Part shown: in pieces, positions 5,178 through 50,212 of the stretch | How the letters are laid out: every line of letters begins with the position of its first letter | Position numbering within the stretch: the first letter of the stretch is position 1 | Source of the DNA: Alphaproteobacteria bacterium | Lineage (GTDB): Bacteria; Pseudomonadota; Alphaproteobacteria; Rs-D84 | Reading direction: 5' to 3' | DNA length: 64,000 nucleotides | Assembly: GCA_017472065.1 (NCBI GenBank) | Contig: JAFURB010000017.1 | Span: forward strand, 5,887 to 69,886 | Program-made: the position numbers and the translations under genes | The notes under the pieces: generated by a model | Databases searched by the model: none | What the model was told of the DNA's origin: nothing | What the model saw: only the letters and a program-made list of their open reading frames with translations

Positions 5178-5187
5178 ACAAAACCTA

Positions 5188-5215
5188 TTGACAATCAATA
5201 TTTTTGTACTATATT
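5188..5215 (+). promoter_or_regulatory. sigma70-type promoter TTGACA-N16-TATATT
   Basis: ctaTTGACAatcaatatttttgtacTATATTatc. Confidence 0.5.
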
Positions 5216-5248
5216 ATCATACAATAATAACAAATCCCAGGGGACACC

Positions 5249-7071: not shown

Positions 7072-7159
7072 ACAACATATCCTTTCGTTCTTAATATCCC
7101 CCAGGATAACCCAAATCCGCCCCGCATTCAACCCGATTTTATATAAAACACCCTAATAC

Positions 7160-7187
7160 TTGACATTTTATATTTTTGTACTACAAT
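7160..7187 (+). promoter_or_regulatory. sigma70-type promoter TTGACA-N16-TACAAT
   Basis: acTTGACAttttatatttttgtacTACAATtcaaattATG. Confidence 0.5.
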
Positions 7188-7194
7188 TCAAATT

Positions 7195-11784: not shown

Positions 11785-14700
11785 ATGAAGGGAATTAAGA
11801 TAATTTTTGCCGTATGCCTTGCGTTGCTTGGGATTAGTGACGCGTGGGCCACGGATTCTGATGACGCAGTACGCGCCGCTACGCGTCGTGGTGAAACAAA
11901 TACGGTTACATCTGCACGCAAAAAAACTAATACCCCGGCGGTTTCATCAAATGTAAATGCGGTCACACGCGTTACAAATGCAACCGCAAAACAGGCACAA
12001 ACAATGCGCGAACGCGCAACAACACCCCGCACTGGCAATAATGTGTTAACACGCACATCAACGCCACAAAATAATAAACAGGTATCTGCCCGCACAGCAA
12101 CCAACATATCGTCACGCGCAACGACAACCGATGGCACAAAAAAAACAACCACATCACGACACGCATCGCCTGCGCGCGCCGCGACACGCACACCAACAAC
12201 CACCATCCGAACCAGCACGGCTGCACGCAACGCATCGCGTCGCACATCAATCGCACGCAGTGCCACAACCGACACCGCAAATCTGCGTGATGTGGTAATG
12301 AACGCAAATCACAAAGAATGTCGCGATGTCTTTTACAATTGTATGGATGAATTCTGCGCGAACAAAGACAGTCAACTAAAACGTTGTGCATGTTCGTCAC
12401 GCCTGCATGAATTTGACGGCATAAAAAAACAATTGGCCGTCGTCGAAGATAAAATGTTGGATTTTTCCCAACGTCTTTTAACGGTCAGTATGGATGCCGA
12501 AGATGCGGCCGCCCTGAACATCGCCACCGAAGGGGAACTGGCATTTAACCAAAAAGATACATCCGAATCAAAAAAATTATTGGATGAAATTGCAAAGAAA
12601 TTAAACACTAAATTTGATGACGATTCATTTGACAGAAACCTGACCGCAATATCATTGTCCTTGAACGAAGATGCGGCATTTGACAATGTTGATTCTTTGA
12701 TGGGGGCATCTACGACATTAAAGACCGGCACTGAATTACATGCGGCGGCCCTGCCGGTGTGTCGCGAAATGGCGGCCGAGGTTTGCACCCCCGACCAACT
12801 GGCCATTGCCGAAAGCGGTTATAAAATGATGATTGAACAAGACTGTAATACGGTAAAAAAATCGTATCAATCCCAAACAGATGCCGCCCGCACCAAGGTT
12901 ATGGAAAGCAGCGCGTTACTGGACATGTCGCGCCTAAACACATACCAAGATAGAAATTCAGACGACATATTAACATGCAAACGCAAAATGCTGGATATGT
13001 TAAGTGACACATCGGTCTGTGGTAAAAACCTGGCAAAGTGCTTGGATACAACGGGGCAATATATCAACCCATCAACCGGCGATGCGTTTTTAACCACCAA
13101 TTTGGCAAATCTAAGTACACTTATTAAACGACCAGATGCAAATAACACATGGACCAGCATGCCTGGCAACGAACGTTTTGTGCAACACTTAAATTCAAAA
13201 AAGACATATCTGGAACCTGCGATGGAACATTGCCAAGACATTGCAGATTCTGTGTGGGACGATTTTATCGAAGATGCGTTGGCACAAATAAAACTGGCCC
13301 AGGATGCCAAACTAGAAGAAGTTCGCCAATCATGCACCACACTTACCACACAATGTTTATCTGACACTGCTAAATCATTAACAGATTTTGATGCACGCGC
13401 CCTGTCAACATTTGGTGTTATCGCAGATATGACTGTAAACGCCATGTGTGCTGATGTAAAAACTGCATGTACTGCATTACTGGAAACAACCGGTGGCGGC
13501 ACAGATTGGGCGGGTGGCATGACAGAAATCGCCACCGACACAACATATGAGACAATAATTCAGACATGCCGCGAGGTTGGCCGTGCATGCATTGTTCAAA
13601 ATTGCCGTTCCATTTCTGGCAACTTTGGTCTGTGTGAAAACATTGAAACATCCGTTAATCGCAAGGCAATTATTCGTGGCACATCCTGCTGGGACGATGT
13701 TTTGAAATGCGTTGCCGATGCCGGCGCCGATTCGATTGAAAAAATTACAGCGCAATTGTCATCACGCAAAATCATCCCCGGTCCAGAAAACATTATCAAC
13801 GACGGCGATGAAATTATATCAACAACAACACCGCTTTATTCATTTTATAGTGAACTCTACGACATAACCATTGATGGTAAAAAATATGCTGCCCTGTCAA
13901 GCGACATCAGTGGCAACGGATACGATATTGCCAACTGCAGAATTTCTGGTGTAACCGTCACGGACGATAACGGTAATGAAACAAAATATGAACCAATGCG
14001 TTGTGTATACGACATGTGTGTTGCCAAGGGACAATGTGCCACAACCTATAATGACACATCAACCAAATGCAAAACATGTCGCATTGCCGAACGTATTTGG
14101 GGACATTGCGAAATGGATCCAATAACCCAATTACCTGGTGCAGACGAACACAATCAAATCTTGGCCCCATCTAATCGTGACGAAACAACATTATTATATT
14201 GGTTTGCACTAAATACCGGCACGGAAAATATGGCTGACTCTTGTCGCGACACATCATGCGGCCCCGGCGAAATGTTTAGCGCCACAAAAAATCAATGTAT
14301 CTCTGTCGAAGCAATCAGTAACGATGGCACCGAATGCGAATCCAGAAATCGTATCGCCGTCCCAGGTGCCCAGACAAATTGTTGCAGTGCAACATCAAAA
14401 GATTCGTGGGGCAATTGCTGTGGTGGTGTATTAAAAACACAAATCGCAGGATTCGATGCATCTATAACAGATTCGTATTTTGCCACACTGGACAAAACAC
14501 AAACAACAAACAACAACTACAAGATATGTATCCCAAGTGAGACACAAATCAATTTTGTTGTACAATTTGCCCCATCGGATACCACATATTATACGCTTGG
14601 TCGAAATATACTTGTATGTCTGGGTGATTTATCTGATGGTGGCGATACAAGTGGTGCGTTCCCATCGGGCGACACAATTGAATGTAACGGTCAATACATG

Positions 14701-14919
14701 GTTATAAACCTAGATTCTGGCATGTATTATGCCCCAACCCCATCTGCCCCGTCACCAAACATGTCATACAAAATTGATAATGGTTCGACAACATGCACCC
14801 TTGGGTATGACACATCAACCAACACATGGACATGGACACAAAGTGGTACCGGCGAAACATCATGCACGACATCAATGCCATCCGCAAATGATGGTTGGGG
14901 ACTAATGATACAATACTAG
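11785..14919 (+). CDS. giant secreted cysteine-rich protein, paralog A (1044 aa)
   Basis: Signal peptide MKGIKIIFAVCLALLGISDAWA. T/S/R/A-rich spacer. Signature CRDVFYNCMDEFCANKDSQLKRCACSS at 12319..12393. The ORF-track start 11665 lies inside the tRNA and is rejected. Confidence 0.8.
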   Translation: MKGIKIIFAVCLALLGISDAWATDSDDAVRAATRRGETNTVTSARKKTNTPAVSSNVNAVTRVTNATAKQAQTMRERATTPRTGNNVLTRTSTPQNNKQVSARTATNISSRATTTDGTKKTTTSRHASPARAATRTPTTTIRTSTAARNASRRTSIARSATTDTANLRDVVMNANHKECRDVFYNCMDEFCANKDSQLKRCACSSRLHEFDGIKKQLAVVEDKMLDFSQRLLTVSMDAEDAAALNIATEGELAFNQKDTSESKKLLDEIAKKLNTKFDDDSFDRNLTAISLSLNEDAAFDNVDSLMGASTTLKTGTELHAAALPVCREMAAEVCTPDQLAIAESGYKMMIEQDCNTVKKSYQSQTDAARTKVMESSALLDMSRLNTYQDRNSDDILTCKRKMLDMLSDTSVCGKNLAKCLDTTGQYINPSTGDAFLTTNLANLSTLIKRPDANNTWTSMPGNERFVQHLNSKKTYLEPAMEHCQDIADSVWDDFIEDALAQIKLAQDAKLEEVRQSCTTLTTQCLSDTAKSLTDFDARALSTFGVIADMTVNAMCADVKTACTALLETTGGGTDWAGGMTEIATDTTYETIIQTCREVGRACIVQNCRSISGNFGLCENIETSVNRKAIIRGTSCWDDVLKCVADAGADSIEKITAQLSSRKIIPGPENIINDGDEIISTTTPLYSFYSELYDITIDGKKYAALSSDISGNGYDIANCRISGVTVTDDNGNETKYEPMRCVYDMCVAKGQCATTYNDTSTKCKTCRIAERIWGHCEMDPITQLPGADEHNQILAPSNRDETTLLYWFALNTGTENMADSCRDTSCGPGEMFSATKNQCISVEAISNDGTECESRNRIAVPGAQTNCCSATSKDSWGNCCGGVLKTQIAGFDASITDSYFATLDKTQTTNNNYKICIPSETQINFVVQFAPSDTTYYTLGRNILVCLGDLSDGGDTSGAFPSGDTIECNGQYMVINLDSGMYYAPTPSAPSPNMSYKIDNGSTTCTLGYDTSTNTWTWTQSGTGETSCTTSMPSANDGWGLMIQY

Positions 14920-14927
14920 GACACAAA

Positions 14928-16298
14928 ATGAAGCATTTAACATACGCAACTATTTTTGTACTGATGACAATGCAACCGTTGATGGCAGCAACCAATACAT
15001 CTTGCGAAAGCATTAACACAGAACACAACAGTTGTGCAAGTATCGCAGGCTGTATGGCCGACCAAGAAAATCCTGGCACATGTATGGCATGTCCAGCTGG
15101 TAAATACGGTGCCGGGTGTACAAAATCATGCACCGCACATTACACATATAATTCTGGATGCGACGGGTGTGAATGGGGATACACAGGCGAAGGTTTTATA
15201 GATAACACTTGCTCTTGGTATGCGAATTGTCCTGCTGGATACTATTGGTCTGATGATTCTGGATGCCAGCCATGCGCTTCTGATGAATTTACACCAGACA
15301 AAACCGAAGTTGAATATTGGGGCGAAGAAATCACAAACACAGGCTACGTTTCATGCCAGAAATGCGGTGCATACTCAACAGGTATAAAACGCTACAATAC
15401 CAGCGATTCTGGTGGATGCAAATGCAACTTGGGATACCATGTACCAAATTCCAGGGAAGATGATAAAGAAACCTACACCGGTGAAGATTGTGTTCCCGCT
15501 ACATACCGAATCAGAATTTATAAAAATCATCCAGAGAATGAAAATGACGACGAATACATCACACTGTACGTGCGTTATGGAAAAAACGGCTTTGTCCAAG
15601 GCACCCCAACCGACGACAACAACCGTGATTCTTGGTTTGAATCAGCCTCTAAAACAAACGTCGTGCCAAATATTGATGATGGTACAAATTATAAATACCA
15701 AATAAATGAATACACAGACACCAAATGCGGTGTTGACGACTGTCCAGAAGACCCCACACTAATGCCTGGTGATGTTTATTCCGCACCCATCACGGACTTT
15801 ACAAGCGATACAGATTTGTATGCATGCTATAAGACAAAAACATATTCCATTATGTATCTCAGTGACCCCCAATCAACTGGCACACACCAAATTAGTCAAC
15901 TTACATATAACACACCACTACAATCAGCCATGGATATAGAAGATGTTTATGAACACGCCCCACATTTTTACGATCGGTGGGATGGAAAAATATTTTCGCA
16001 TTGGTCATGCCATGCATCAACATGTGATGACACAGAAATACACCCCGGCGATCCAATTCCAGAACCAAACGCCCCATACCCACAAACCCAATTAATCGCG
16101 GTTTTGAAAGACTGCGGTACTGGAAAGTATTGCAAAAACAATGAAGAAGATTACTGTCCCGCCGGCACAACAACCCTAATCACAACCGCGACCAGCGAAG
16201 CAGCATGCAAATTAACCAACAAAACAAAGTTCAAAGATAATACAGACCTGATTTTTAGTTTACCTATTTCAGATTCTACAACGATTTCTATAAAATAA
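14928..16298 (+). CDS. secreted cysteine-rich repeat protein (456 aa), partner of paralog A
   Basis: Starts 8 nt after the stop of A. Signal peptide MKHLTYATIFVLMTMQPLMA. Motifs CMACPAGKYGAGC, NCPAGYYW, CQKCGAYSTG, CPAGTTTLITTATSEAAC. F-x-x-W repeat resembling Listeria-Bacteroides-type repeats. Confidence 0.75.
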   Translation: MKHLTYATIFVLMTMQPLMAATNTSCESINTEHNSCASIAGCMADQENPGTCMACPAGKYGAGCTKSCTAHYTYNSGCDGCEWGYTGEGFIDNTCSWYANCPAGYYWSDDSGCQPCASDEFTPDKTEVEYWGEEITNTGYVSCQKCGAYSTGIKRYNTSDSGGCKCNLGYHVPNSREDDKETYTGEDCVPATYRIRIYKNHPENENDDEYITLYVRYGKNGFVQGTPTDDNNRDSWFESASKTNVVPNIDDGTNYKYQINEYTDTKCGVDDCPEDPTLMPGDVYSAPITDFTSDTDLYACYKTKTYSIMYLSDPQSTGTHQISQLTYNTPLQSAMDIEDVYEHAPHFYDRWDGKIFSHWSCHASTCDDTEIHPGDPIPEPNAPYPQTQLIAVLKDCGTGKYCKNNEEDYCPAGTTTLITTATSEAACKLTNKTKFKDNTDLIFSLPISDSTTISIK

Positions 16299-20242: not shown

Positions 20243-20305
20243 TTTTTCTTTACCATTTTTTACAATAACGATTTGAAATTAGTGCAAATAAACCTAAAAA
20301 ACAAT

Positions 20306-20335
20306 GTCGAAAACAAACGGTGATTTGTTTTCGAC
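20306..20335. terminator. 12-bp perfect hairpin (gtcgaaaacaaa-cggtga-tttgttttcgac), part of duplicated upstream module copy 1
   Basis: Perfect inverted repeat. The T-tract (attgtttttt) follows on the minus strand. It may also end polA transcription. Confidence 0.5.
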
Positions 20336-20348
20336 TTCCTTTACACGC

Positions 20349-20415
20349 ATTTTATCCCAGTTTTTAGCCCCCTGTCAACCCGATTTTATGCCGAATCCAA
20401 AGGACCGTTTTCCTA
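20349..20415. promoter_or_regulatory. conserved upstream module copy 1 (about 67 nt, near-identical to 41527..41593 reverse-complemented)
   Basis: attttatcccagtttttagccccctgtcaacccgattttatgccgaatccaaaggaccgttttccta. On the minus strand it contains TTGACA (20373..20378), an 18-nt spacer and TAAAAT (20349..20354). Confidence 0.6.
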
Positions 20416-20445
20416 TCAATGTAAAAAATTCAGAAAGGGGGAAAA

Positions 20446-21228
20446 ATGAAGAAATTATTGTTATTTAGTTGCTTATTACTAATCTCATTATCGGCAAATG
20501 GCGCCACATCTGTAACATTATATGTTGCTGCAAACTGTGCAACCACCTCTAATAGTGCTGCCCAGGGTTTTTGTGACGGAACCTACTCTGCTTGTTCTTC
20601 ATCGGGACCAAATGTAGTCGCTGGTACCTCATATTCCAGCTATATTAACTGTGGTCGTATTTATAGTGAATCACTTGGCAGATACGCAATTCTATGTTTT
20701 GATGCCAATACCACTGATAGCACTGCTTCCACGAAATTATGCAATTGGTTTGCGGGCGATGGTGGTTGCAACGATAATTACCTGGGTACAACACCAACAG
20801 GTGTGTCATTTATGGGCAGTGCAATTGGCAAAACTGTCACGGTATACCCCGATCAAATAGAATGTTGCCAAACATGTACTGGATATACATATACAACATA
20901 TTTAAGTGGATCTGTAGAGAGACAGCAAAAAAACACCTGTTCAACTGATGGTACATGTGCAGGTTCAACCGTAGCCGCGTATGGTTCTTATTACTGCGAT
21001 AATGGATATTATAGCGCCAATGGCACCGCAACGGTCAACAACACATCCAATCCAAACAACCTGCAATGCACATCATGCGCCAATCTGCAAAGTGGATTGA
21101 CCCAAGATGACGTGTCCAGCCCCCAGAAATCAACATCACCAACCGATTGTTATATTCCATCTGGACATCCATTGACTGATTCTTTGGGTACATATGAATA
21201 TACCAGCAATTGCAATTATTCATCATAA
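20446..21228 (+). CDS. secreted cysteine-rich protein (260 aa)
   Basis: Signal peptide MKKLLLFSCLLLISLSANGA. GGGGGA RBS. Many Cys (CTSCANLQSG, CDNGYYSANG). C-terminus homologous to that of 40514..41506. Confidence 0.75.
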   Translation: MKKLLLFSCLLLISLSANGATSVTLYVAANCATTSNSAAQGFCDGTYSACSSSGPNVVAGTSYSSYINCGRIYSESLGRYAILCFDANTTDSTASTKLCNWFAGDGGCNDNYLGTTPTGVSFMGSAIGKTVTVYPDQIECCQTCTGYTYTTYLSGSVERQQKNTCSTDGTCAGSTVAAYGSYYCDNGYYSANGTATVNNTSNPNNLQCTSCANLQSGLTQDDVSSPQKSTSPTDCYIPSGHPLTDSLGTYEYTSNCNYSS

Positions 21229-24617: not shown

Positions 24618-24641
24618 ATCCCGGCAACGCCGGGATTTTTA
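24618..24641 (+). terminator. intrinsic terminator after rplI
   Basis: atcccggc-aac-gccgggat followed by T5. Confidence 0.75.
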
Positions 24642-24661
24642 TTAAACAGAATAGTTTAGAT

Positions 24662-24719
24662 AAAAACGAAACCGATGGCGAAGTGTACAAACGCTACATG
24701 AGCCATCGGTTTCGTTTTT
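24662..24719. terminator. long hairpin (about 17-bp stem, 22-nt loop) downstream of clpB
   Basis: aaaacgaaaccgatggc ... gccatcggtttcgtttt with T-tracts on both strands. Confidence 0.65.
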
Positions 24720-24743
24720 AGATGAATTATTATATTTAATTTT

Positions 24744-36485: not shown

Positions 36486-37283
36486 ATGAAAAAAATAATA
36501 GCCACCATAGCCATGTGCGCCTTATCAAGTTCGGCGATTGCTGATTTTCTGACAGGCACAGATAATCGCTGTTTTATAGATACTAGCGGTTGGAACGAAT
36601 CTTGGTTTTGCGGTAAATCCGATGACAAATGTGCCGACAAAAAAGCGACTGGCGGGTACCGTAATCCGCATTATTTATATCACGGCGAATATTTTACAAA
36701 AGATTCGACCAGATATTATTGCTGCAACGGCACAACTGATGAAATCGGCAGATTTGTCAAAGCATCTAGCTTTAACAAAACAGAAACCATCACCGTACAA
36801 CTAGACGGTGGCGGAAAATGTAACTATAGCCGCAAAACAGACATTTGTGGCAATATCATCAAAGACGAGAAATGCACCACACCCGATAAATGCCCTGCCC
36901 AAACAATACTACGCAATGGACAATGTGTCACACCATGCATTGATGGATATGTATTTGAAAGCGCAACATTAAATCGATGTATTGAATGCCCAGATTCACA
37001 AACCCAAGGCATCCAAGGCATCGGCTATGACAAAAAATGCATACGATGTAAATCCACAGAAATCCTGAACAAAGATACATGGAAATGCGAAGATCCAGAA
37101 GCCCAAAAGAAACAATTACAAAAAGATGTTGCCACTGGTAAAAAAATAGCTATATCTCGTGGAATAATGGAACAGTGCTGGCAGTGCCCAGATTCTAATT
37201 TATATAAAGATTGTGTAAAAAGCCTGGCCAAACAGCAAGAACTATCAGATGCCATAAAAACAAAATGTAAAATCAGTGAATAA
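36486..37283 (+). CDS. secreted cysteine-rich protein (265 aa)
   Basis: Signal peptide MKKIIATIAMCALSSSAIA. GGGGGA RBS. Motifs CIECPDSQTQG, CIRCKSTE, CWQCPDSN. Confidence 0.75.
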   Translation: MKKIIATIAMCALSSSAIADFLTGTDNRCFIDTSGWNESWFCGKSDDKCADKKATGGYRNPHYLYHGEYFTKDSTRYYCCNGTTDEIGRFVKASSFNKTETITVQLDGGGKCNYSRKTDICGNIIKDEKCTTPDKCPAQTILRNGQCVTPCIDGYVFESATLNRCIECPDSQTQGIQGIGYDKKCIRCKSTEILNKDTWKCEDPEAQKKQLQKDVATGKKIAISRGIMEQCWQCPDSNLYKDCVKSLAKQQELSDAIKTKCKISE

Positions 37284-40488: not shown

Positions 40489-40518
40489 AAAACCGGCAAT
40501 GCCGGTTATTTTTTTATT
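40487..40518. terminator. bidirectional intrinsic terminator
   Basis: A6-aaccggc-aat-gccggtt-aT7; lies between convergent genes. Confidence 0.75.
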
Positions 40519-41506
40519 TTACATACGAACAGTTACCGGTTAATTCAAATGTCCCCGTTGAATCATAAAATGTACCCGGTTTCAGATAGCATTCTGTTAT
40601 TGCCGTCGCCCCCGATGTGGCGGTTGTTCCATATGTATATGATGTAAGTTCTGAATTTAGCCATCCAAGTGTTGATGAATTTGGACAACGTGTACATGTG
40701 CTGGTACTGCCATTTGAATAATATCCGCTACTGCATTCCCATGCACAACTGTTTTCGGTGGTGTATTGGGCGCCGGTGGGCGCACTGGTGCATGCGGTAC
40801 ACCCCTCGTTATTGGCACCGGTTGCCGTACCATAATAGCCCACCCCACATGAATACCCAGTTGAAGTACACGCCGTCCTTGCATCATTCACAACATAACC
40901 ACTTTGACATGCAACAACAACACAACGCGTACCATATCCATCAACCCCCTTATAATTACTGCAATATTTAGATGTCAAATATGAAGCCTGCACCCCTGTC
41001 GAACCATTACAACCACTGGTCGCTGTACTAGAATCTTCAAGACAATAAATCTGACCATCAATTGTTGCACTAAATGTACGACATTGGTTGGTTGAACTGC
41101 ACAATTCATAAGATGAATCACCACCACCGGATGACCCACCACCGGATGACCCAGTGGTACATGTCGAATAATCCGCCGCACCACTAACACACGAACATTC
41201 ACCATTTGTCTTTGATGTATCTGGATTGTTGGAACATTTGCACGAGACACACGCACATTGATTATACAAGTAATATGTACCAGAAGAACCAGTGGCCGTA
41301 TCACTGGCTGTAGTCAGATCCGGTTGTGTTGACGGACATGTGGTACACGAACACGCATTGCCCGATACATGGGTAGACTCCTCGGAATATGCACTGCATA
41401 TTACATCCGGGAATAGGTTTTTACACGCCGTATCATGCGTGCCAGCTATCACATTGCCCGCCATAAATAAATTACACATCAAACCAAAAATTAAGATTTT
41501 TTTCAT
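40514..41506 (-). CDS. secreted cysteine-rich repeat protein (330 aa)
   Basis: Signal peptide MKKILIFGLMCNLFMAGNVIA from ATG 41506 (GGGGGAGG RBS). CTACTSAPTGAQY, CSSGYYSNGSTSTCTRCPNSS. The ORF-track N-terminal extension to 41638 is a read-through of the conserved upstream module. Confidence 0.75.
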   Translation of the reverse strand: MKKILIFGLMCNLFMAGNVIAGTHDTACKNLFPDVICSAYSEESTHVSGNACSCTTCPSTQPDLTTASDTATGSSGTYYLYNQCACVSCKCSNNPDTSKTNGECSCVSGAADYSTCTTGSSGGGSSGGGDSSYELCSSTNQCRTFSATIDGQIYCLEDSSTATSGCNGSTGVQASYLTSKYCSNYKGVDGYGTRCVVVACQSGYVVNDARTACTSTGYSCGVGYYGTATGANNEGCTACTSAPTGAQYTTENSCAWECSSGYYSNGSTSTCTRCPNSSTLGWLNSELTSYTYGTTATSGATAITECYLKPGTFYDSTGTFELTGNCSYVK

Positions 41507-41526
41507 GTTGCCTCCCCCAATTTTTT

Positions 41527-41593
41527 TAGGAAAACGGTCCTTTGGTTTCGGCATAAAATCGGGTTGACAGGTGGCTAAAAACTGGGATAAAAT
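41527..41593. promoter_or_regulatory. conserved upstream module copy 2 (reverse complement of 20349..20415, 2 mismatches seen)
   Basis: The plus strand contains TTGACA (41564..41569), an 18-nt spacer and TAAAAT (41588..41593), pointing away from the Cys-rich gene. Confidence 0.6.
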
Positions 41594-41606
41594 ACCATTG
41601 CAAGAT

Positions 41607-41636
41607 GTCGAAAACAAATCACCGTTTTTTTTCGGC
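41607..41636 (+). terminator. hairpin of module copy 2 (gtcgaaaacaaa-tcaccg-ttttttttcggc) followed by a T-tract
   Basis: Same 5' arm and loop as copy 1. The 3' arm is diverged (one G.U and one mismatch). Followed by attattttttt. Confidence 0.45.
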
Positions 41637-41728
41637 ATTATTTTTTTGCGTTTTTACAACTGTTTTCAATGCATTAACAAGAAAAAACACATTTTGCTTT
41701 TTTTTGATAAGATAAATAAAAGTTTATA

Positions 41729-42005
41729 TCAAAGTTCAAAGTGCAAAGTTCAAAGTGCAATTGTGGAAAAATTAAACACTATCGTCATACCGGCGAAGGC
41801 CGGTATCCACTGTGTTGTTCTTAATTTCGAAACTGGGTGGAATACAATGGACCCCGGCCTAGCATCACCCACAAAATTTTTAATTTTGCAGGCCTCGAAC
41901 GCCGGGGTGACGGCTTTAAGAGTTTCTTAGATAAACTTTCATTTATCAAAGTATTAATTAATAGAATCCACAATTGCACTTTGAACTTTGCACTCTGAAC
42001 TTTGA
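41729..42005. repeat. MITE-like element with 38-bp terminal inverted repeats
   Basis: Left arm tcaaagttcaaagtgcaaagttcaaagtgcaattgtgg (41729..41766). Right arm 41968..42005 is its reverse complement with 1 mismatch. Arms are built of heptamer repeats. Interior has GC-rich palindromes (ataccggc-gaa-gccggtat; ccccggc...gccgggg). Confidence 0.55.
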
Positions 42006-42036
42006 AAAAAAATCCCTGCAATTGCGGGGATTTTTT
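42004..42036. terminator. bidirectional intrinsic terminator downstream of nrdG
   Basis: A8-atccctgc-aatt-gcggggat-T6. Confidence 0.7.
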
Positions 42037-42736
42037 ATTCACGCCATGTAACAGATTGAAACATAGAATTTATTTTTTCACGCATCGCACCGTCATTAAA
42101 AAACTGTTCCCGTGATGCAGAATCTGTTTTGTGTGCCGCATCTTCGAAATGTGGAATATATTTTTGAATTGCGATATCCGATACTCCACGTTCGTTTAAT
42201 ATTTCTGCAATTTTAATTAAATCTGATTTATCGATAAAACGCGGATCGCATGTGATTCGAACCTCAAAATCTTTGCCGGTTGCCAACCACACATCCAATG
42301 ATTTTATCATATTGTCATATGCAATATGTTGTCCGGTCAGGTCCGGATATTTTTCACGCATCGCTTTGAAATCCAACCCAATCCAATCAACCAAATCCGC
42401 CGCACGGCGCAATGTGTCTGGATAAAAACCATTGGTGTGCAAACCGATTTTGAATCCAATTTCCCGAACACGACGCATATATTCGATTGTTGCATCGCCC
42501 TGCATCAATGCTTCACCACCGGAAAAAACGACCGCTTCCAGTTTGCCGACACGCGATTGCAACCAATCAAACACGCGTTCGGGATCATATTCGCCATCAT
42601 GTGGGGTTAATAAATGGGGATTGGAACAATACGCACACCGCAATGGACATCCAACCAAGAACAGCACAGCCGCCAATTTCCCAGGATAATCGATTGTAGT
42701 GAAAGAAACCAATCCCCCAATTTGTACAGATTTCAT
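42035..42736 (-). CDS. nrdG: anaerobic ribonucleoside-triphosphate reductase activating protein (radical SAM)
   Basis: GCPLRCAYCSNPHL (CxxxCxxC); lies downstream of nrdD. Confidence 0.85.
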   Translation of the reverse strand: MKSVQIGGLVSFTTIDYPGKLAAVLFLVGCPLRCAYCSNPHLLTPHDGEYDPERVFDWLQSRVGKLEAVVFSGGEALMQGDATIEYMRRVREIGFKIGLHTNGFYPDTLRRAADLVDWIGLDFKAMREKYPDLTGQHIAYDNMIKSLDVWLATGKDFEVRITCDPRFIDKSDLIKIAEILNERGVSDIAIQKYIPHFEDAAHKTDSASREQFFNDGAMREKINSMFQSVTWRE

Positions 42737-42746
42737 GATCTTAAAC

Positions 42747-42926
42747 TTACGCCGCTTTCTTTAACAGTTCAGCATGTCTGCAACCCGTGGTCAAGCAGTT
42801 TGATTCAGTAAATGTTTTACGTTCACAGAATTCAGAATATTTGCCAATATTAAAGTTTGATACAGGGCGAATAAAACCCATTGATCTTGAAAATACTTCG
42901 CAACGTGTTCTTTGGCAGTCTGTCAT
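42747..42926 (-). CDS. stand-alone glycyl-radical peptide of class III RNR (59 aa), not in the ORF track
   Basis: My translation: MTDCQRTRCEVFSRSMGFIRPVSNFNIGKYSEFCERKTFTESNCLTTGCRHAELLKKAA. It matches the NrdD C-terminal glycyl-radical region (compare EVYSRVVGY..PV..WN.GK..EF..R). GGGAGGA RBS. 10 nt upstream of nrdG. Confidence 0.7.
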   Translation of the reverse strand: MTDCQRTRCEVFSRSMGFIRPVSNFNIGKYSEFCERKTFTESNCLTTGCRHAELLKKAA

Positions 42927-42977
42927 AGTGTGTTCCTCCCTTTCTTTTTTTGCTGACTGTTTAATTGTTGTTTATTC

Positions 42978-45002
42978 TTATGCCTGATTTGCGCCGTTTT
43001 CTGCGTCACATTTCGGACAGAATTCATGTTTCCCCGGTAAATATCCGTGCTTTGGACAAATTGAAAATGTTGGTGTTAATGTCATATACGGCACCTTGTA
43101 ATTTTCAAATATCGTACGGACAATTTTCTGGGCGGCATCACCACTGGATACCGGTTCACCCATATACAGGTGCAACATCGTTCCACCAGTATATTTACGT
43201 TGTAACTCTTCCTGGTGTTCCAGGGCGACAAATGGGTCGTCGGTAAAGTTCACAGGTAACTGGGTTGAATTTGTGTAATATGGTGCGTCATGTGTTCCCG
43301 CCGTGATAATATCTGGGAAATTTTTGACGTCTGTTTTTGCGAATCGATATGAACATCCTTCGGCTGGGGTTGCTTCCAGATTATACAAGTTTCCGGTCTG
43401 TTCCTGGAAATTCGCCAGGTTTTCACGGATGAAATCCATAACATCCAGAACCAATTTTTTACCGAATACCGTTGCAATATTTTCTGCACCGTTTGTAAAG
43501 TTCAATACCATTTCATTTGCGCCATTAACACCGATGGTTGAAAAGTGATGATTCCAATCCCCCAGATAACGGCGTGTAAATGGATACAAACCACGTTCCA
43601 TATTTTTGGTGATAATCTTGCGCTTGATTTCCAGACTGTCGCGGCCCAAATCCAGTAACCGTTTCAGTTCACGGAACAATCCGTCACGGTCACCCTTGTG
43701 TATATATCCCAGGCGCGCCAAGTTAATTGTTACAACACCGATTGATCCCGTCTTTTCTGCCGAACCAAACAGTCCACCACCACGCTTTAACAATTCGCGT
43801 ACATCCAAACGCAAACGACAGCACATTGAACGAACATCGGTCGGATTCAAATCAGAATTCAAGAAATTCTGGAAATTTGGAATTCCATATTTTGCCGCTA
43901 ATTCAAACAACGGCTTTACATTTGGATGATTCCATGGGAAATCCGGTGTAATATTATATGTTGGAATTGGGAATGTAAATGGACGCCCCAATGCATCACC
44001 TTCGGTCATGACTTCGATGAACGCCTTGTTAATCATGTCCATTTCCGCCTGTAAATCGCCGTATGTGAAATCAACCTGTTTGCGGCCAATAAATGGACGC
44101 TGTTCGCGCAAATCGGTTGGGCATGTCCAATCAAATGTGAAATTGATAAATGGTGTCTGGGTTCCCCAACGACATGGCACACCACAATTGAACACCAATG
44201 TCTGCATTGCGTTTTTAACATCTGCATATGATAAATTATCAACACGAACATACGGTGCCAGGTATGTATCAACCGATGAAAATGCCTGGGCGCCTGCAAA
44301 TTCGTTCTGCAATGTCCCCAAGAAATTTACCATATGTGAAATCGCGGTTGCCATATGCTTGGCCGGTTCACAATGTAGGTATCCTGGGACACCGTTAAAT
44401 CCTTCGTACAATAATTCACGCAATGACCAACCTGCACAATATCCGGTCAACCATCCTAAATCATGCACATGAATTGCAGCATTTTTGTGCGCCTCTGCCA
44501 CGGCACGTGGATACAGATTCAACCAATATTCCGCCGTCACGCGTTCAGATGTACGCAAAATTAAACCACCAATCGAGTAACCAACATTTGCATTTTCTTT
44601 GATACGCCAATTTGAACCACCAACATAGCCTTCGATAATATCAACGGCATCAACCATCGATTCGCGAATTTCCGTGCGTTTCTGGCGATAAATAATATAT
44701 GATTCGGCTGTCTTATATGCGCCATTATCCATCAGTGTTTTGATAACCGTATCCTGGATTGATTCAACCGATGGTGTGCGCTGTGCATATTCTTCGCCCA
44801 GTGTATCCAGCACTGATTGTGTCATAGATACTATTTGTTCATGGCTTAATTCCGTTGTGACATCAACCGCGCGTTTAATTGCACTATAAATCTTTAGCGC
44901 ATTAAAGGGCACTGTTTCGCCACCGCGTTTCTGCACGGCAACCAATTTAGTTGTAAAACTTGGTGTGATTTCAATTTTTGTTTCAATCTGTGTTTCTGAC
45001 AT
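42978..45002 (-). CDS. nrdD: anaerobic ribonucleoside-triphosphate reductase large polypeptide, ends before the glycyl-radical motif
   Basis: ATP-cone VQKRGGETVPFNALKI; class III RNR body. C-terminus ends at the Zn motif ICPKHGYLPGKHEFCPKCD. Confidence 0.9.
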   Translation of the reverse strand: MSETQIETKIEITPSFTTKLVAVQKRGGETVPFNALKIYSAIKRAVDVTTELSHEQIVSMTQSVLDTLGEEYAQRTPSVESIQDTVIKTLMDNGAYKTAESYIIYRQKRTEIRESMVDAVDIIEGYVGGSNWRIKENANVGYSIGGLILRTSERVTAEYWLNLYPRAVAEAHKNAAIHVHDLGWLTGYCAGWSLRELLYEGFNGVPGYLHCEPAKHMATAISHMVNFLGTLQNEFAGAQAFSSVDTYLAPYVRVDNLSYADVKNAMQTLVFNCGVPCRWGTQTPFINFTFDWTCPTDLREQRPFIGRKQVDFTYGDLQAEMDMINKAFIEVMTEGDALGRPFTFPIPTYNITPDFPWNHPNVKPLFELAAKYGIPNFQNFLNSDLNPTDVRSMCCRLRLDVRELLKRGGGLFGSAEKTGSIGVVTINLARLGYIHKGDRDGLFRELKRLLDLGRDSLEIKRKIITKNMERGLYPFTRRYLGDWNHHFSTIGVNGANEMVLNFTNGAENIATVFGKKLVLDVMDFIRENLANFQEQTGNLYNLEATPAEGCSYRFAKTDVKNFPDIITAGTHDAPYYTNSTQLPVNFTDDPFVALEHQEELQRKYTGGTMLHLYMGEPVSSGDAAQKIVRTIFENYKVPYMTLTPTFSICPKHGYLPGKHEFCPKCDAENGANQA

Positions 45003-45025
45003 TTTACTACTCCGATACTCTTAAA

Positions 45026-45041
45026 ACACAATATATAGTGA
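45026..45041. promoter_or_regulatory. putative NrdR box 1
   Basis: acacaatatatagtga, a 16-bp AT-core palindrome-like site 24 nt upstream of the nrdD ATG. Confidence 0.5.
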
Positions 45042-45057
45042 TTATTTGTTCGATTTG

Positions 45058-45073
45058 ATAACAATATATAGTT
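45058..45073. promoter_or_regulatory. putative NrdR box 2
   Basis: ataacaatatatagtt, starting 32 bp after box 1 (about three helical turns). Confidence 0.45.
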
Positions 45074-45429
45074 TTTAGAGTTTATAAACAATCTATAAAA
45101 CGCAATTTTTTTTGTATTTTTTGCTTTACTTTTGAAAAGGCATATTTTCTGCATGTTACAGGCGTATAACAGAATCGGGCCTGTCATACGAATTTATGTT
45201 TTGTATCAATAAATTGCATTTTTTTACCTGGGAACTGATTCGGTATTTTGATAAAAACACAAAATATTGATTACAAAAAGCGAATCATACACTATATATA
45301 GACCCAACCAAAAGACACATTTACCTAAAATAGGTTGTTTTTCCCATTAAAAACGGCTACATTGTTGTTATGTCCGGTGGTAATAATGCCCCGGAACAAA
45401 CCTTAACATAAAAATAAAAGAGCATTATT

Positions 45430-47019
45430 ATGATTAAAAACATATATGAAATGCTGCATCAGGCCTGCGAAAAGAACAAAGACCGTATTTTCTTTGTCCG
45501 CGAAAATGAAACCTATGCAGATTTGTTAAGAAAGGTAAAGCAACGTGCCGTCACATTGGCAAAACGCTTTGGTATCAAAAAAGGCGATACGGTTGCACTG
45601 CTGTCGGGTAATACACCGGACTTTGTGCGTTCGTATTTTGCCATTGCATCCCAGGGCGCACGTGTTTTGATGCTGGACACAGGACTACAGACAACCGAAC
45701 ACATTAATATGATTAAGCGTACGGATTGTAAACTGGTTCTGGCACAGAAACATTATTTCATTGATGACGAATCCATCAAGATGGCTGATATCGAATCGAT
45801 TGATGACACAGATGAAAACGAATTCGTCATGGCCGATGTCGAACGCAGTGATGTTGCACAATTATCATTTACATCGGGTTCAACTGGCAATCCCAAGGTT
45901 GTTGGGTTAACACACAATAACCTATTATCATTATGTGATGGGGCACAATTTTATAAAGATGTGATTTTACCAGGATACACATTTTATGGATTCTTGCCGC
46001 TGTATCATATATATGGTGTGGTAATTAATATTATTGTGCCGGTATGCTTGCATGGAAAACTGCTGTTACAGCCGGTATTAAAACCCCAAGAATTCTTAAA
46101 AGATTTCAAACAGTATAAACCAGAAGTTATCCCCGCCGTTCCACGCATTTGGGAAGTATTCTATAAGAAAATCGTTGATGCAGCCCGTGCAAAACACGCC
46201 TGGACATTGATGCGCGTTGTTGTGTCACTGCGTCATGTATTGCGTGCAATTGGTTTGGGTGGTGTTGTAAAAAAAGTAACAAAACCAATCCACGATTTAT
46301 TTGGTGGTAATACTAAGGTTCTGGTTTCAGCCGGCGCAACATTAAAGCCATCGATTCGCAAATTCTATGAAAGATTGGGATTTGTTGTTGGTGACTGCTA
46401 TGGTTTGACCGAAACGACGGGCCCGGGCAACTTTAACTTTGCATTTCGTCGTGCCAATGGTCAAATGTATTATGCCGGTCCATTGTTGGGTAATGAATTA
46501 AAGATTCACAACCCGAACAAAGAAGGCATTGGTGAAATCTGGATTCGCGGAAACATGGTTATGCCTGGCTATATCGATAACGATGCCGCCAACGCAGATG
46601 CATTCGAAGACGGTTGGTTCAAAACCGGCGATATTGGTACATTGGATAAAAAAGGCCGTTTGATTGTAAAGGGACGTCAAAAACAGGTTATCGTTCTGGA
46701 CAGTGGTAAAAACGTTTATCCAGACGAACTGGAAGACCTTTATATGCAAAACGACGAAATCCTGGCCGCGGCGGTATTTGAATATGTGATTAAGGGGAAA
46801 ACAGTCCCATACGGTGTATTCCAGGTAAAACCAGGCACCACCATTGAACGCGTTGATTTCTTGATTAAGAAATCTAATCTGGCAATTGCCCAATATAAAT
46901 GGGTGCGTGATTTTGCCATCACCGAAGAAGAATTGCCACAAACATCCGCCAAGAAAATCAAGCACTTCGCTGTACGCGACATGCTGGATCATGGTGCGTT
47001 CACACGCGCAACCAAATAA
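45430..47019 (+). CDS. AMP-dependent synthetase / long-chain fatty-acid--CoA ligase
   Basis: AMP-binding motif SFTSGSTGNPKVVGLTH, GWFKTGDIG and C-terminal SAKKIKH. Confidence 0.8.
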   Translation: MIKNIYEMLHQACEKNKDRIFFVRENETYADLLRKVKQRAVTLAKRFGIKKGDTVALLSGNTPDFVRSYFAIASQGARVLMLDTGLQTTEHINMIKRTDCKLVLAQKHYFIDDESIKMADIESIDDTDENEFVMADVERSDVAQLSFTSGSTGNPKVVGLTHNNLLSLCDGAQFYKDVILPGYTFYGFLPLYHIYGVVINIIVPVCLHGKLLLQPVLKPQEFLKDFKQYKPEVIPAVPRIWEVFYKKIVDAARAKHAWTLMRVVVSLRHVLRAIGLGGVVKKVTKPIHDLFGGNTKVLVSAGATLKPSIRKFYERLGFVVGDCYGLTETTGPGNFNFAFRRANGQMYYAGPLLGNELKIHNPNKEGIGEIWIRGNMVMPGYIDNDAANADAFEDGWFKTGDIGTLDKKGRLIVKGRQKQVIVLDSGKNVYPDELEDLYMQNDEILAAAVFEYVIKGKTVPYGVFQVKPGTTIERVDFLIKKSNLAIAQYKWVRDFAITEEELPQTSAKKIKHFAVRDMLDHGAFTRATK

Positions 47020-47044
47020 TTGGATTGGCAATTTAGTACACAAA

Positions 47045-47072
47045 CAGACCAAGATTTTTTATTCTTGGTCTG
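47045..47072 (+). terminator. hairpin after the CoA ligase gene
   Basis: cagaccaaga-N8-tcttggtctg, with only a weak T-tract. Confidence 0.45.
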
Positions 47073-47080
47073 CTTATATA

Positions 47081-47109
47081 TTGACAAAACATTATTTATG
47101 TACTATATA
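47081..47109 (+). promoter_or_regulatory. sigma70-type promoter TTGACA-N17-TATATA
   Basis: Shares the tgtacTATAT -10 context with promoters at 5188, 7160 and 49567. Confidence 0.5.
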
Positions 47110-47135
47110 CAATAGTGTGAGTATTGGGGGTGAAA

Positions 47136-47681
47136 ATGAAAAAGGTAAAAAAGGGACGCCTGCAAAAGGCCAAAGAATTAAAAGATGCCCGTGCAATAAT
47201 GTTGCGCGCGATGATTTCGCGTGGTCGTGTCGCATCCGCATCATTGCCCCGTTTGTATGAAGCACTGCGGGCAATGGATGCGTATGAAATGACTAATCGC
47301 GTATCTGGGCTGGATAAACCCGACGCAGACGAAGATACTGCCGACACACTGCGCGCTAAAATAGAAAATGCACAAACAGATGTCGCCAATGCCGACAAAG
47401 CGGCGACCGAATTAAAAGAAATCGAACGATTCTATCGCGCATACCATATTGTTATGAATATGCCGCGTCTGAAAGATTTGCGGGCGCGCCTTAATGTTGC
47501 AAAATACTGGACCGAACAATGGCAAGAAAGAATTAACAGCCTTGCTTTAGAATCTAATATGGATATTGATGAACAATTCCAAGAAAAAGATTATCTGGAA
47601 CAAGAATATGCCAAGGCCATCGACCAGGTTAACCAGATTCAATCCCAAATAAACGAAATAACAAACGGCAAACACATGTAA
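47136..47681 (+). CDS. hypothetical coiled-coil protein (181 aa)
   Basis: ATG 47136 with a GGGGG RBS (the ORF-track start 47124 is TTG). Charged, helical-looking sequence. Confidence 0.55.
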   Translation: MKKVKKGRLQKAKELKDARAIMLRAMISRGRVASASLPRLYEALRAMDAYEMTNRVSGLDKPDADEDTADTLRAKIENAQTDVANADKAATELKEIERFYRAYHIVMNMPRLKDLRARLNVAKYWTEQWQERINSLALESNMDIDEQFQEKDYLEQEYAKAIDQVNQIQSQINEITNGKHM

Positions 47682-47682
47682 A

Positions 47683-47746
47683 AATCCCCCATCCGGGCCC
47701 CGTGCAAACAAATGTTTGCGTGGGCGGACATTCGGGGGATTTTTTT
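47683..47746. terminator. composite bidirectional terminator containing a palindromic repeat
   Basis: Outer aatccccc ... gggggatt stem with flanking A/T tracts. Inner palindrome cgtgcaaacaaatgtttgcgtg (47701..47722). Confidence 0.6.
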
Positions 47747-48917
47747 ATTCTGCCAATATTGCAATTCCAGGCAAATTGCGCCCTTCTATAAATTCCAGGA
47801 ACGCCCCACCCCCGGTCGATACATATGTCACATCATCTTTGACACCACATGCGGTCAATGCCGCAACCGTGTCACCACCACCGACAATGCTTTCCAACTT
47901 ACCTGCGCGTGTTTGTTCTGCAATGGCATTTGCAATCGCAAACGAACCATACGACCACACAGGCGTCCATTCTGCCATACCAACCGTTCCGTTCCATATA
48001 ACCGTCGCAGATTTTTTTATTTCATTAACATCGCGTTCGGTCGTTGCAATACCCGCATCAATGATTATGTCATCATCTTCTATCTGGGTAAAATCTTTGT
48101 TTACGCGTTCCGCATCGCGGGCAAATTCTTTGGCAACGCCTTTGTCCAATGGCAACAAAACTGTACAGTTCTGTTCACGCGCATATTGCAAAATTTCCAG
48201 CGCAACATCTTTTTGATCGGCTTCATACAACGAATTACCAACATTGCCACCGGTCGCATAATTAAATGTGGTCCCCAGCGCACCACCAATAATCAGTTTA
48301 TCAGATAATTTTGCCAATGCCTTTAACACACCAATTTTGGTTGAAACCTTGCTGCCGGCAACAATGGACAACAATGGTCGTTTTGGATTTTCCATAACTG
48401 CGCTAAGATGTTCAATCTCAGACGCCAACAAATCCCCCGCATATGACGGCAAAATTTCTGCGACACCAACGGTACTGGCATGGGCGCGATGTGACACGGC
48501 AAACGCATCATTTACGAACGCATCGAATCCACGGGCCAAATCTGATGCAAATGCGATATCATTTTTTTCTTCGCCCGCATAGAAACGAACATTTTCCAAT
48601 AACACAACATCACCATCATGCATATCGCGCATAAAATCTTTGTCCAGACAATCTGGGATTAATTTTACCCCCATATAATCTGCAACTGGTTTTAATGAAT
48701 ACGCCATGTTGCGTTCCCCCTTGGGCCGCCCCAAATGAGCACAAATCGCGATTCGTGCCCCCATATCGCGCAATTTATTAATTGTCGGCATACTTTGTTC
48801 AATGCGAAACGCATCTGTTATCTGTCCATCTACAATCTGGACATTAAAATCATCACGCAGCAACACATATTTTCCACGTAAATCCAATCCATTAATCGTA
48901 CGCAATTTCATTTTCAA
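47745..48917 (-). CDS. pgk: phosphoglycerate kinase
   Basis: LLRDDFNV, HLGRPKG, STGGGAFLEF. Confidence 0.95.
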   Translation of the reverse strand: MKMKLRTINGLDLRGKYVLLRDDFNVQIVDGQITDAFRIEQSMPTINKLRDMGARIAICAHLGRPKGERNMAYSLKPVADYMGVKLIPDCLDKDFMRDMHDGDVVLLENVRFYAGEEKNDIAFASDLARGFDAFVNDAFAVSHRAHASTVGVAEILPSYAGDLLASEIEHLSAVMENPKRPLLSIVAGSKVSTKIGVLKALAKLSDKLIIGGALGTTFNYATGGNVGNSLYEADQKDVALEILQYAREQNCTVLLPLDKGVAKEFARDAERVNKDFTQIEDDDIIIDAGIATTERDVNEIKKSATVIWNGTVGMAEWTPVWSYGSFAIANAIAEQTRAGKLESIVGGGDTVAALTACGVKDDVTYVSTGGGAFLEFIEGRNLPGIAILAE

Positions 48918-49515: not shown

Positions 49516-49566
49516 AACACCCCCCAGGATATCAATTTTTTTCCACAAATAAAATACTTTTTACTA

Positions 49567-49594
49567 TTGACATTTTAATTTTTTGTACTATATT
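49567..49594 (+). promoter_or_regulatory. sigma70-type promoter TTGACA-N16-TATATT
   Basis: ctaTTGACAttttaattttttgtacTATATTaatg. Confidence 0.5.
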
Positions 49595-49640
49595 AATGTG
49601 TGACAGGGTTGAACAACAAGATAACAAAAAGGAAGAAAAA

Positions 49641-49949: not shown

Positions 49950-50212
49950 TGTCAAATTTCAGCCCAAATTATAACGGAAATCAAAAACCAGGCAATAATT
50001 TGGGCCAATTCATATTGATGGCATTTATTACACTGAACGGTATATCAACGGGTAACGTTATTCGCACAGGTCGCGACATCGCCACCAATGGCGCAGATTC
50101 AAATACAATAATTGCCTTGATGTTATATCTGGGGTGCACAATATACACCGCACAGCGCGCCATCGAAATATACAAGAAAATTCACAAAAACGATAACGAC
50201 AAATCCCGTTAA
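49949..50212 (+). CDS. small membrane protein (87 aa)
   Basis: ATAATG-coupled to the upstream ORF; two hydrophobic segments. Confidence 0.5.
   Translation: MSNFSPNYNGNQKPGNNLGQFILMAFITLNGISTGNVIRTGRDIATNGADSNTIIALMLYLGCTIYTAQRAIEIYKKIHKNDNDKSR

Follow-up and report, generated by a model that had tools for sequence, protein, structure and literature searches.

Candidate miniature promoter invertons upstream of secreted cysteine-rich protein genes in an uncultured gut alphaproteobacterial lineage

Results

A duplicated module with the anatomy of a miniature invertible promoter

Two genes for secreted cysteine-rich (Cys-rich) proteins, here called gene A and gene B, lie within a 64,000-nucleotide stretch of contig JAFURB010000017.1 (Alphaproteobacteria bacterium, assembly GCA_017472065.1; an uncultured rumen or gut organism whose metagenome-assembled genome bears IJ500 locus tags), which we refer to as the window, and each is preceded by a copy of the same ~140-bp module (copies A and B; Table 1). 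Such modules come in two versions: type 1, the promoter-carrying version, which comprises the window copies and their relatives, and type 2, a sister version. The best explanation for these modules is that they are ~85-bp switches controlling a large secreted Cys-rich protein family of uncultured gut Alphaproteobacteria. We lean towards the view that the window modules are the promoter-carrying version of miniature invertible DNA switches (invertons), and that both copies are OFF. They are read in this way because the conserved motifs that we term M-boxes and their spacing, the identity of the cores and an expression signal facing away from the gene are all kept in type 1. Anatomy, conservation and homology to type 2 together make it somewhat probable that type 1 itself inverts.

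Read towards the gene, a weak promoter candidate, described below, comes first in a type-1 module and is followed by the left site (M1). Here an M-box of the ATGCCGAAnCnAA type makes up a 30-bp palindrome, in which the asymmetric 6-bp spacer CGGTGA separates two arms of 12 bp. The right site (M2) carries the second M-box, then GGACCG and then TTTTCCTA, and is followed by a variable stretch, the Shine-Dalgarno (SD) sequence and the ATG. Judged from sequence alone as lox/FRT/dif-like sites, the left one is complete (12+6+12), while the right one keeps a good inner arm and the spacer, with only TCCTA in its outer arm. The M-boxes are inverted and 84 nt apart in eight of nine type-1 copies, and an inverted 7-bp core, AAACGGT/ACCGTTT, is invariant in all nine, with 82 bp between the cores. 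This core has been lengthened independently in two copies, to 12 bp in L013 (inward) and to 13 bp in L012 (outward). The spacer between hairpin and promoter is 13 nt long in eight of the nine copies and 14 nt in the other, and its sequence is free. As in known invertons, then, the segment is flanked by inverted repeats, in type 1 through the cores within the M-box sites, and it encloses an expression signal, which is a promoter in type 1 and an antisense SD and ATG in type 2.

The promoter of type 1 faces outward, that is, away from the gene. Its hexamers, TTGACA and TAAAAT, and the distance of exactly 18 nt between them are invariant in nine of nine copies, while eight spacer positions vary. 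Sigma-70 matches of at least 11/12 were found 14 times in the window, against 1.7 expected from shuffles; 12 of them lie just upstream of genes or tRNAs, and the remaining two are the outward promoters of copies A and B. Such matches are thus highly predictive in this genome. Beyond the promoter, the left palindrome and a T-run form an outward intrinsic terminator in 7/9 copies, with 8 T within the 10 nt after the stem; read gene-ward, the stem has a poor terminator tail. At each of its six wobble cells the stem has G:U when read outward and a C.A mismatch when read gene-ward. In the present arrangement, the sole RNA expected from the module is one of ~45 nt that runs away from the gene. A weak gene-ward promoter candidate (TTGAAA, 16-18 nt, A-rich hexamer; scores 8-9 of 12) accompanies five of six type-1 versions. 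A by-eye check for alternative sigma promoters (sigma-54, sigma-28, EcfG, sigma-32) gave no convincing match.

Table 1. Features of module copies A and B and of the genes that follow them, in window coordinates
Feature	Position	Strand	Details
Copy A, weak gene-ward sigma-70-like promoter candidate	20273-20300	+	TTGAAA 20273-20278, 16 nt, TAAAAA 20295-20300
Copy A, A-run	20296-20305		U-tract of the outward terminator on the minus strand
Copy A, left site (M1)	20304-20335		ATG plus 30-bp palindrome; arms 20306-20317 / 20324-20335; spacer CGGTGA 20318-20323 (6 bp); 7-bp core AAACGGT 20315-20321; minus strand is the stem-loop of an intrinsic terminator (terminator scan)
Copy A, 13-nt spacer	20336-20348
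Copy A, outward promoter	20349-20378	-	-35 TTGACA 20378-20373, 18 nt, -10 TAAAAT 20354-20349; 11/12 consensus
Copy A, right site (M2)	20388-20415		M-box ATGCCGAATCCAAA 20388-20401; core ACCGTTT 20404-20410; gene-proximal arm TCCTA (20411-20415) the sole remnant
Copy A, Shine-Dalgarno and start	20434-20448	+	GGGGG 20437-20441; ATG 20446
Gene A	20446-21228	+	260-aa secreted Cys-rich protein; no Pfam match
Copy B, weak gene-ward promoter candidate	41640-41669	-	TTGAAA-18-AAAAAT
Copy B, outward terminator T-run	41637-41650	+
Copy B, left site (M1)	41607-41638		ATG 41638-41636; arms 41636-41625 / 41618-41607; spacer 41624-41619; core AAACGGT 41627-41621
Copy B, 13-nt spacer	41594-41606		Sequence free, length fixed
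Copy B, outward promoter	41564-41593	+	TTGACA 41564-41569, 18 nt, TAAAAT 41588-41593; 11/12
Copy B, right site (M2)	41527-41554		M-box 41554-41541; core ACCGTTT 41538-41532; TCCTA 41531-41527
Copy B, Shine-Dalgarno and start	41504-41518	-	GGGGGAGG 41518-41511; ATG 41506-41504
Gene B	40514-41506	-	330-aa secreted Cys-rich protein of the same family as gene A; no Pfam match

An initial annotation, made from the letters of the window, had described the module as duplicated upstream of two Cys-rich genes, and a repeat search and an alignment agree with it. Copies A (20266-20445, plus strand) and B (41676-41507, minus strand) form a 150-nt inverted repeat with arms at 20266-20415 and 41527-41676 that are 83% complementary, and the similarity reaches ~40 nt further upstream of the hairpin than that description had it. 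In a pairwise alignment, its 67-nt block (20349-20415 against 41593-41527) is identical at 65/67 positions, with the two mismatches reported. The hairpin of copy A (20306-20335) is a perfect 12-bp stem, and that of copy B (41636-41607) has the same block-adjacent arm and loop, with two changes in the opposite arm. The 13 nt between hairpin and block, said to differ completely, agree at 5/13 positions and are effectively unrelated in sequence and fixed in length. The G-rich ribosome-binding sites and the starts at 20446 and 41506 were also as described. Searched at up to three mismatches, each of four 18-25-nt sub-blocks has exactly two matches in the window, where dinucleotide shuffles expect 0.00-0.09, and scans with sub-blocks and M-boxes revealed no further module copy elsewhere in it. 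Two features had gone unseen: a consensus promoter directed away from the gene lies within the 67-nt block, and the hairpin is one of two inverted recombination-type sites that doubles as the terminator of that promoter.

The module is conserved across genomes and genomic contexts

Loci from other assemblies were fetched by a DNA pattern scan and through homologues of proteins A and B. Type-1 copies were recovered in L010, L005/L006, L003, L009, L012, L013, L019 and L020, and they represent seven independent versions in five genomic contexts (polA/clpX, grpE, nrdG, hisS and RNaseT/UvrD), upstream of three kinds of Cys-rich gene. The module precedes the orthologue of gene A in L010 and those of gene B in L005 and L006, A-like genes adjoining nrdG (L003) or RNaseT/UvrD (L012, L013), and a third kind of family gene adjoining hisS in L009 and again in L019; in L020 it stands at the contig start. 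Its orientation and distance to the family gene are constant across copies. The family gene in L014 lacks the module and is preceded by an ordinary promoter. The sequencing runs in which the switch loci of this family are found are SRR12529369, SRR32206242, DRR848996, ERR14075499, SRR17049904, SRR28221520 and ERR10692672, together with the samples underlying ERZ28653963 and GCA_965135105.1. With copies in at least six other assemblies, the search for more copies proposed by the initial annotation speaks clearly against a recent functionless duplication. The pattern scan of genome contigs returned one real and one chance match, and the module was not found in scans of plasmids, phages, viral contigs or JGI metagenome contigs, the last scanned twice. 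Contigs that end inside the module (L002, L020) were considered as a sign of inversion and rejected, since 30-nt k-mer overlaps at the repeat explain them.

Conservation of the module exceeds that of its surroundings. Between the window genome and L003, nrdG and nrdD differ by 14-18% (82-86% identity), third codon positions are 64-65% identical and intergenic sequence is 81-86% identical; despite that divergence, positions 20373-20413 are identical at 41/41 sites in copy A, L003 and L009. What is constrained in the module is its nucleotide sequence, rather than an encoded peptide or a fold of the RNA. The proposals that the non-coding module is more constrained than the genes downstream, and that it is a cis-acting element common to a variable secreted-protein family, are thereby upheld.

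A sister module inverts a Shine-Dalgarno sequence and start codon

Type-2 modules (L008, L010 14481-14669 and L015-L018) stand upstream of other family genes and align as colinear homologues of type 1, and a type-2 nucleotide profile matches type-1 copies at E ~3e-6. Ahead of the first M-box they have a clear gene-ward promoter, their M-boxes are 84-85 nt apart, and all four arms of their sites read as M-like. Their matched inverted cores co-vary, being GACGATT/AATCGTC in L015 and GACGTTT/AAACGTC in L008. In these modules the second M-box is the start codon itself, GTG or TTG, without an SD, and the pyrimidine-rich stretch before it is the reverse complement of a strong SD and ATG. When inverted in silico between the cores, three of three copies yielded SD-N6-7-ATG and 11 codons in frame with the signal peptide.

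Both predicted N-termini occur in public protein collections, within each of five single clusters at 90% identity (Table 2). One of the flipped proteins, P0190, is the predicted inverted product of L015, identical over 57 residues, and the metagenome-assembled genome IJD41 carries one type-2 gene in each state. Approximately one third of the informative type-2 sequences are flipped. The presence of both N-termini in single clusters, together with the P0190 match, argues that type 2 genuinely inverts, and on the strength of these sequences we take it to be a true switch by inversion, in which the SD is toggled together with the start codon. Since SD, ATG and 11 codons are swapped for an SD-less GTG or TTG, it would be a translational ON/OFF switch rather than a domain exchange.

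Table 2. Flipped and unflipped N-termini within single 90%-identity clusters of type-2 proteins
Flipped	N-terminus	Unflipped	N-terminus
P0031, P0171	MQKSGVFNCNF-MPKIN-VGL...	P0172	MPNLN-VGL...
P0173	MQKSGIFNYEF-MPRKN-VGL...	P0036, P0174, P0184	(V/M)PNLN-VGL...
P0190	MQKTGNFLIDF-MPKKI-VGLFAAL...	P0020	MPKII-VGLFAAL...
P0194	MRKSGKLFLEF-MPNLI-VGL...	P0023	MPKKN-VGL...
P0196	MQKSGKLFLEI-MPNLI-VGF...	P0027	MPKKN-VGF...

A deletion of 1 nt in the second core (GACGATT versus AATGTC) may prevent the type-2 copy at L010 14481-14669 from flipping; the proteins of its cluster all have their start called at a downstream ATG and are uninformative on orientation. Start calls vary in the clusters P0020/P0021, P0036/P0175/P0177 and P0002/P0001, where the same genes are called with three or four different starts: the flipped SD-ATG, the SD-less GTG or TTG, a downstream ATG and an in-frame module ATG. 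Database lengths for the Cys-rich family are therefore unreliable, and the type-2 design, which places the same gene in public databases with two N-termini, is a source of inconsistent gene calls.

Predicted OFF and ON states of the type-1 module

In their present orientation, copies A and B would be OFF. The promoter would fire away from the gene, the palindromic left site with its T-run would stop the outward transcript after ~45 nt, and only the weak upstream promoter would face the gene. Were the two cores to recombine, the promoter would come to face the gene, and the resulting ON leader of 53-63 nt would use the existing SD and contain no terminator. Inversion in silico placed the -10 hexamer 69 nt (A) and 59 nt (B) before the ATG, and the ON leaders had weak predicted folds (-5.5 kcal/mol for A, -7.4 kcal/mol for B) and no T-run longer than 4. 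The predicted flipped junctions are AAACGGTCCTTTGG and CAAATCACCGTTTTCC, which would read ...GAAAAC AAACGGT CCTTTGGATTCGGCAT... and ...GTCGAAAACAAATC ACCGTTT TCCTA.... In such a switch, helical phasing within so small a loop would account for stretches whose length is fixed and whose sequence is free, the OFF state would gain insulation from the outward terminator, and a non-palindromic gene-proximal arm would avoid a hairpin in the ON-state leader. The flipping itself would, we infer, be carried out by a tyrosine-type recombinase whose gene lies elsewhere in the genome.

Several observations weigh against promoter inversion in type 1. No flipped copy was present among ~10 DNA loci, and in the protein clusters of gene B nine of nine long calls are in the present orientation, the others having uninformative MKK starts. 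Outside L012, TCCTA is all that is conserved of the right site's outer arm, and such degeneracy could disable recombination; L012 and L013 also lack the outward T-run. No recombinase domain appeared in the ~39 of ~55 window genes that were scanned, nor in the Pfam lists of the fetched loci. Finally, an invertible segment of 82 bp is far below the invertible switches that are commonly cited. Because no flipped copy was seen and the gene-proximal arm is degenerate, type 1 may flip rarely or may be a locked derivative.

A broader model, to which we give a little less than an even chance, is that one recombinase drives ~85-bp invertons genome-wide, with promoter-flip and SD/start-flip designs that are interchangeable and built on common M-box sites, and with combinatorial phase variation as the outcome, the type-1 copies of the window being active and caught OFF. 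If true, this would amount to combinatorial phase variation of an unannotated family of small secreted Cys-rich proteins, with ~1000 clusters at 50% identity, in uncultured Alphaproteobacteria of rumen and gut.

Alternative explanations

The type-1 module could instead be the locked relic of an inverton that exerts static control without flipping. Its outward promoter would converge on the weak gene-ward promoter and act through transcriptional interference and/or antisense, the ~45-nt stem-loop RNA matching the initial 35-40 nt of the mRNA in antisense, in a manner resembling pIN/pOUT of IS10. We judge this explanation unlikely, though several points favour it. All type-1 copies share one orientation, and the outer arm of the right site is degenerate. 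The weak gene-ward promoter is conserved in position, its -10 ending 0-2 nt before M1, and its transcript would overlap the outward RNA, which is complementary to the M-box regions; the outward hairpin and T-run are found in 7/9 copies and favoured on the outward strand. What a relic leaves unexplained is the identity of the right M-box and 7-bp core to the left ones, 84 bp away, in 9/9 copies, the independent lengthening of the inverted repeat in L012 and L013, and spacers of fixed length whose sequence drifts. The missing T-run in L012 and L013 also counts against it.

In IS10, pIN and pOUT are under antisense control by RNA-OUT. Like IS10, the module in its present state has a strong outward promoter ~60 nt inside a weak inward one and would produce a short stem-loop RNA whose sequence is complementary to where the inward mRNA begins, at its 5' end. 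Convergent promoters and an antisense stem-loop are thus present by sequence, but the overlap covers only the vestigial ATG of M1, and the real SD and ATG lie uncovered 130-140 nt downstream. Also unlike IS10, the module is not a transposon, has no transposase, and is flanked by inverted recombination-type sites.

Considerably less probable is a static leader recognised in trans. Here the M-boxes, 84 nt or eight helical turns apart, would bind a family-specific DNA- or RNA-binding regulator, or an AAACGGU-ACCGUUU helix in the mRNA would tune translation, and the promoter hexamers would be incidental. The M-box spacing of 84-85 nt kept in both module types would fit, as would the lengthened complementary stretches of L012 and L013 and the long-range helix picked by RNAalifold. 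That helix is invariant, however, with 0 covarying pairs on the gene-ward strand, and at 7 bp, A/U-rich and spanning 82 nt, it competes with a local hairpin of -13 to -16 kcal/mol. When the gene-ward strand was folded one sequence at a time, for the two window copies and three type-2 leaders, no structure recurred; z lay between -2.8 and +0.3, and in four of the five it was no better than -1.75. Further points against a static leader are that M-boxes are not enriched elsewhere in the window, that promoter matches of 11/12 are almost never incidental in this genome, and that the homologous type-2 element inverts.

RNA and peptide readings of the module fared no better. The initial annotation had allowed for a cis-regulatory RNA, but a riboswitch, leader or thermometer finds no support in an Rfam family, in covariation or in a recurring gene-ward fold. 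Rfam returned only tRNAs from the whole window at gathering score and only chance-level matches from both module regions at E up to 10, and a tmRNA/tRNA scan of the region adjoining copy B found none. In the hairpin, 90.6% of cells are paired, yet covariation does not rise above shuffles (8 sequences). A leader peptide or upstream open reading frame (ORF) is ruled out by stops in L012 and L013, a frameshift through a 1-nt insertion in L009 and a frame to the gene that varies between 0, 1 and 2; codon by codon, the module ORF of copies A and B differs by two synonymous and seven non-synonymous changes. The module ATG does open an ORF in frame with gene B, and the mechanical ORF extends to 41638, which accounts for the 374-aa mechanical ORF and for 366-aa gene calls. 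A trans-acting anti-M small RNA was also set aside: duplex energies are good, but trivially so given the similarity of M1, M2 and the type-2 start, and the loops are not complementary to those of type 2.

A functionless recent segmental duplication or gene conversion between paralogues is very improbable, for although the two copies in one genome are nearly identical and recombination of modules is evident from the mosaic copy in L019, copies occur in at least six other assemblies and five contexts, the 41-nt core is invariant across genomes diverged by 14-18% whose intergenic sequence is only 81-86% identical, and hexamers, cores and spacings stay invariant while neighbouring positions drift.

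Comparison with known switching systems

Phase variation by inversion is a main route of surface variation in gut bacteria, documented mostly for Bacteroidota, Enterobacteria and Firmicutes and mostly with segments of 150-1000 bp. Invertible promoters are known from Escherichia coli fimS (~314 bp) and from the polysaccharide and surface-protein promoters of Bacteroides fragilis, which are flipped by Mpi and other recombinases; Bacteroides promoter segments span ~170-230 bp. To our knowledge, no described inverton is as small as ~85 bp. More than 75% of catalogued invertons are shorter than 300 bases (PMC11602134). The module resembles the fimS and Bacteroides invertons in having inverted repeats around a short promoter-holding segment, in controlling surface or secreted proteins of gut bacteria, and in using one type of site at many loci, which implies a trans-acting recombinase, with an OFF read-out insulated by a terminator. 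Unlike them, its segment spans only ~82 bp between 7-bp cores, its left site, more than a simple inverted repeat, is a lox/dif-like palindrome of 30 bp, its promoter version was seen in one orientation, with no recombinase among the genes scanned, and its host is an uncultured alphaproteobacterial lineage.

Among the cases described in the literature are invertons that recode a gene, either from within it or at its 5' end (PMC10028968). Type 2 resembles these in that the flipped segment holds an SD, a start codon and the first codons and gives two N-termini. It differs in exchanging no protein domains, and the type-1 copies of the window have a promoter instead and stay entirely outside the gene, on its upstream side. 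Shufflons and vsa-type switching in Mycoplasma are further recoding-type switches. In the vlp, vsp and vsa systems of Mycoplasma, paralogous surface-protein genes have a conserved 5' region that is the switching site, and there, as in the module, the upstream region is much better conserved than the coding sequence. The two share no sequence similarity. Mycoplasma systems rely on slippage in poly-A tracts or on inversions between distant genes that move one promoter, whereas here each gene would have a self-contained switch. The expression-site-like cassette that had been suggested for the window copies is thus close in spirit, but the mechanism indicated is a different one, a local invertible DNA switch per gene.

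This uncultured lineage appears to run a whole family of inversion switches. Repeat-based inverton finders probably miss switches of 80-89 bp with 7-bp cores, and surveys may be blind to such a miniature class.

The Cys-rich protein family and its genomic surroundings

Proteins A and B have a signal peptide and ~7-9% Cys. They had been described as mostly different, but they are not unrelated: both belong to one family with a common C-terminal Cys-rich domain (C..C...TDCYIP.G..D..GT...NC.Y). A profile search with this family collected 992 clusters at 50% identity. Pfam gave no match on the family except Ephrin_rec_like in one member, and an AlphaFold model (pLDDT 69.7) had no fold match in the PDB by Foldseek.

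Gene A is 94.5% identical to its L010 counterpart at the nucleotide level, compared with ~98% for neighbouring genes. Its third codon positions are 96.6% identical, so that most changes are non-synonymous. A further secreted Cys-rich gene of the window, at 14928-16298 and without a module, is also fast-evolving, being 89.5% identical to L010 against the ~98% background, and another at 36486-37283 is secreted and likewise without a module. Fast evolution and missing annotation of such a large family suggest roles in host or phage interaction.

The neighbours of genes A and B are housekeeping genes (polA and clpX; grpE and nrdG). At the grpE locus, one genome has a type-1 module and another a type-2 module. 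The module of L019 joins A-like left parts to L009-like right parts, and this mosaic indicates that modules recombine.

The rplI-clpB gap provides a case of gain or loss. In the window (24641-24740) it contains only a hairpin with 39-nt arms, and in L010, a genome 98% identical, it holds a 1.55-kb insertion (14190-15739) with a repeat element, a type-2 switch and a gene for a 345-aa Cys-rich protein. Switch-plus-gene units thus seem to be gained or lost as blocks adjoining terminators. The same repeat element stands upstream of the type-2 switch in L010 (14194-14424) and, in the window, adjoins copy B as a 289-bp element (41723-42011) with 45-nt inverted arms (41723-41767 and 41967-42011) of CAAAGTTCAAAGTGC repeats; further stretches that belong with it are L010 20267-20369 and window 62858-62902. 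Its interior has a long closing stem, CGTCATACCGGCG...CGCCGGGGTGACG, with no Rfam match, and a 32-nt inner piece (~41812-41843), flanked by CCACTGTG/CACAATGG, is inverted in the window relative to L010. The orthologous locus in L005 lacks most of the 289-bp element.

A separate 32-nt promoter-like repeat, CTATTGACA...TTTTTGTACTATATTA, is present in three copies (5185-5216, 7157-7188 and 49564-49595). In two cases it ends 2-8 nt before the annotated ATG, a position that suggests shared regulation, mis-set start codons or leaderless mRNAs.

Between 8407 and 62902 the window contains at least 11 bidirectional terminators of one style, AAAAATCCC..GGGATTTTT, including two near-identical pairs (42005 with 62872, and 52195 with 53997). 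In L003, the 3' ends of nrdG and of the homologue of window gene 54023-56566 face each other across a type-1 module and an A-like gene. This arrangement points to an inversion of ~12 kb relative to the window (42031-53994), with ends at palindromic terminators.

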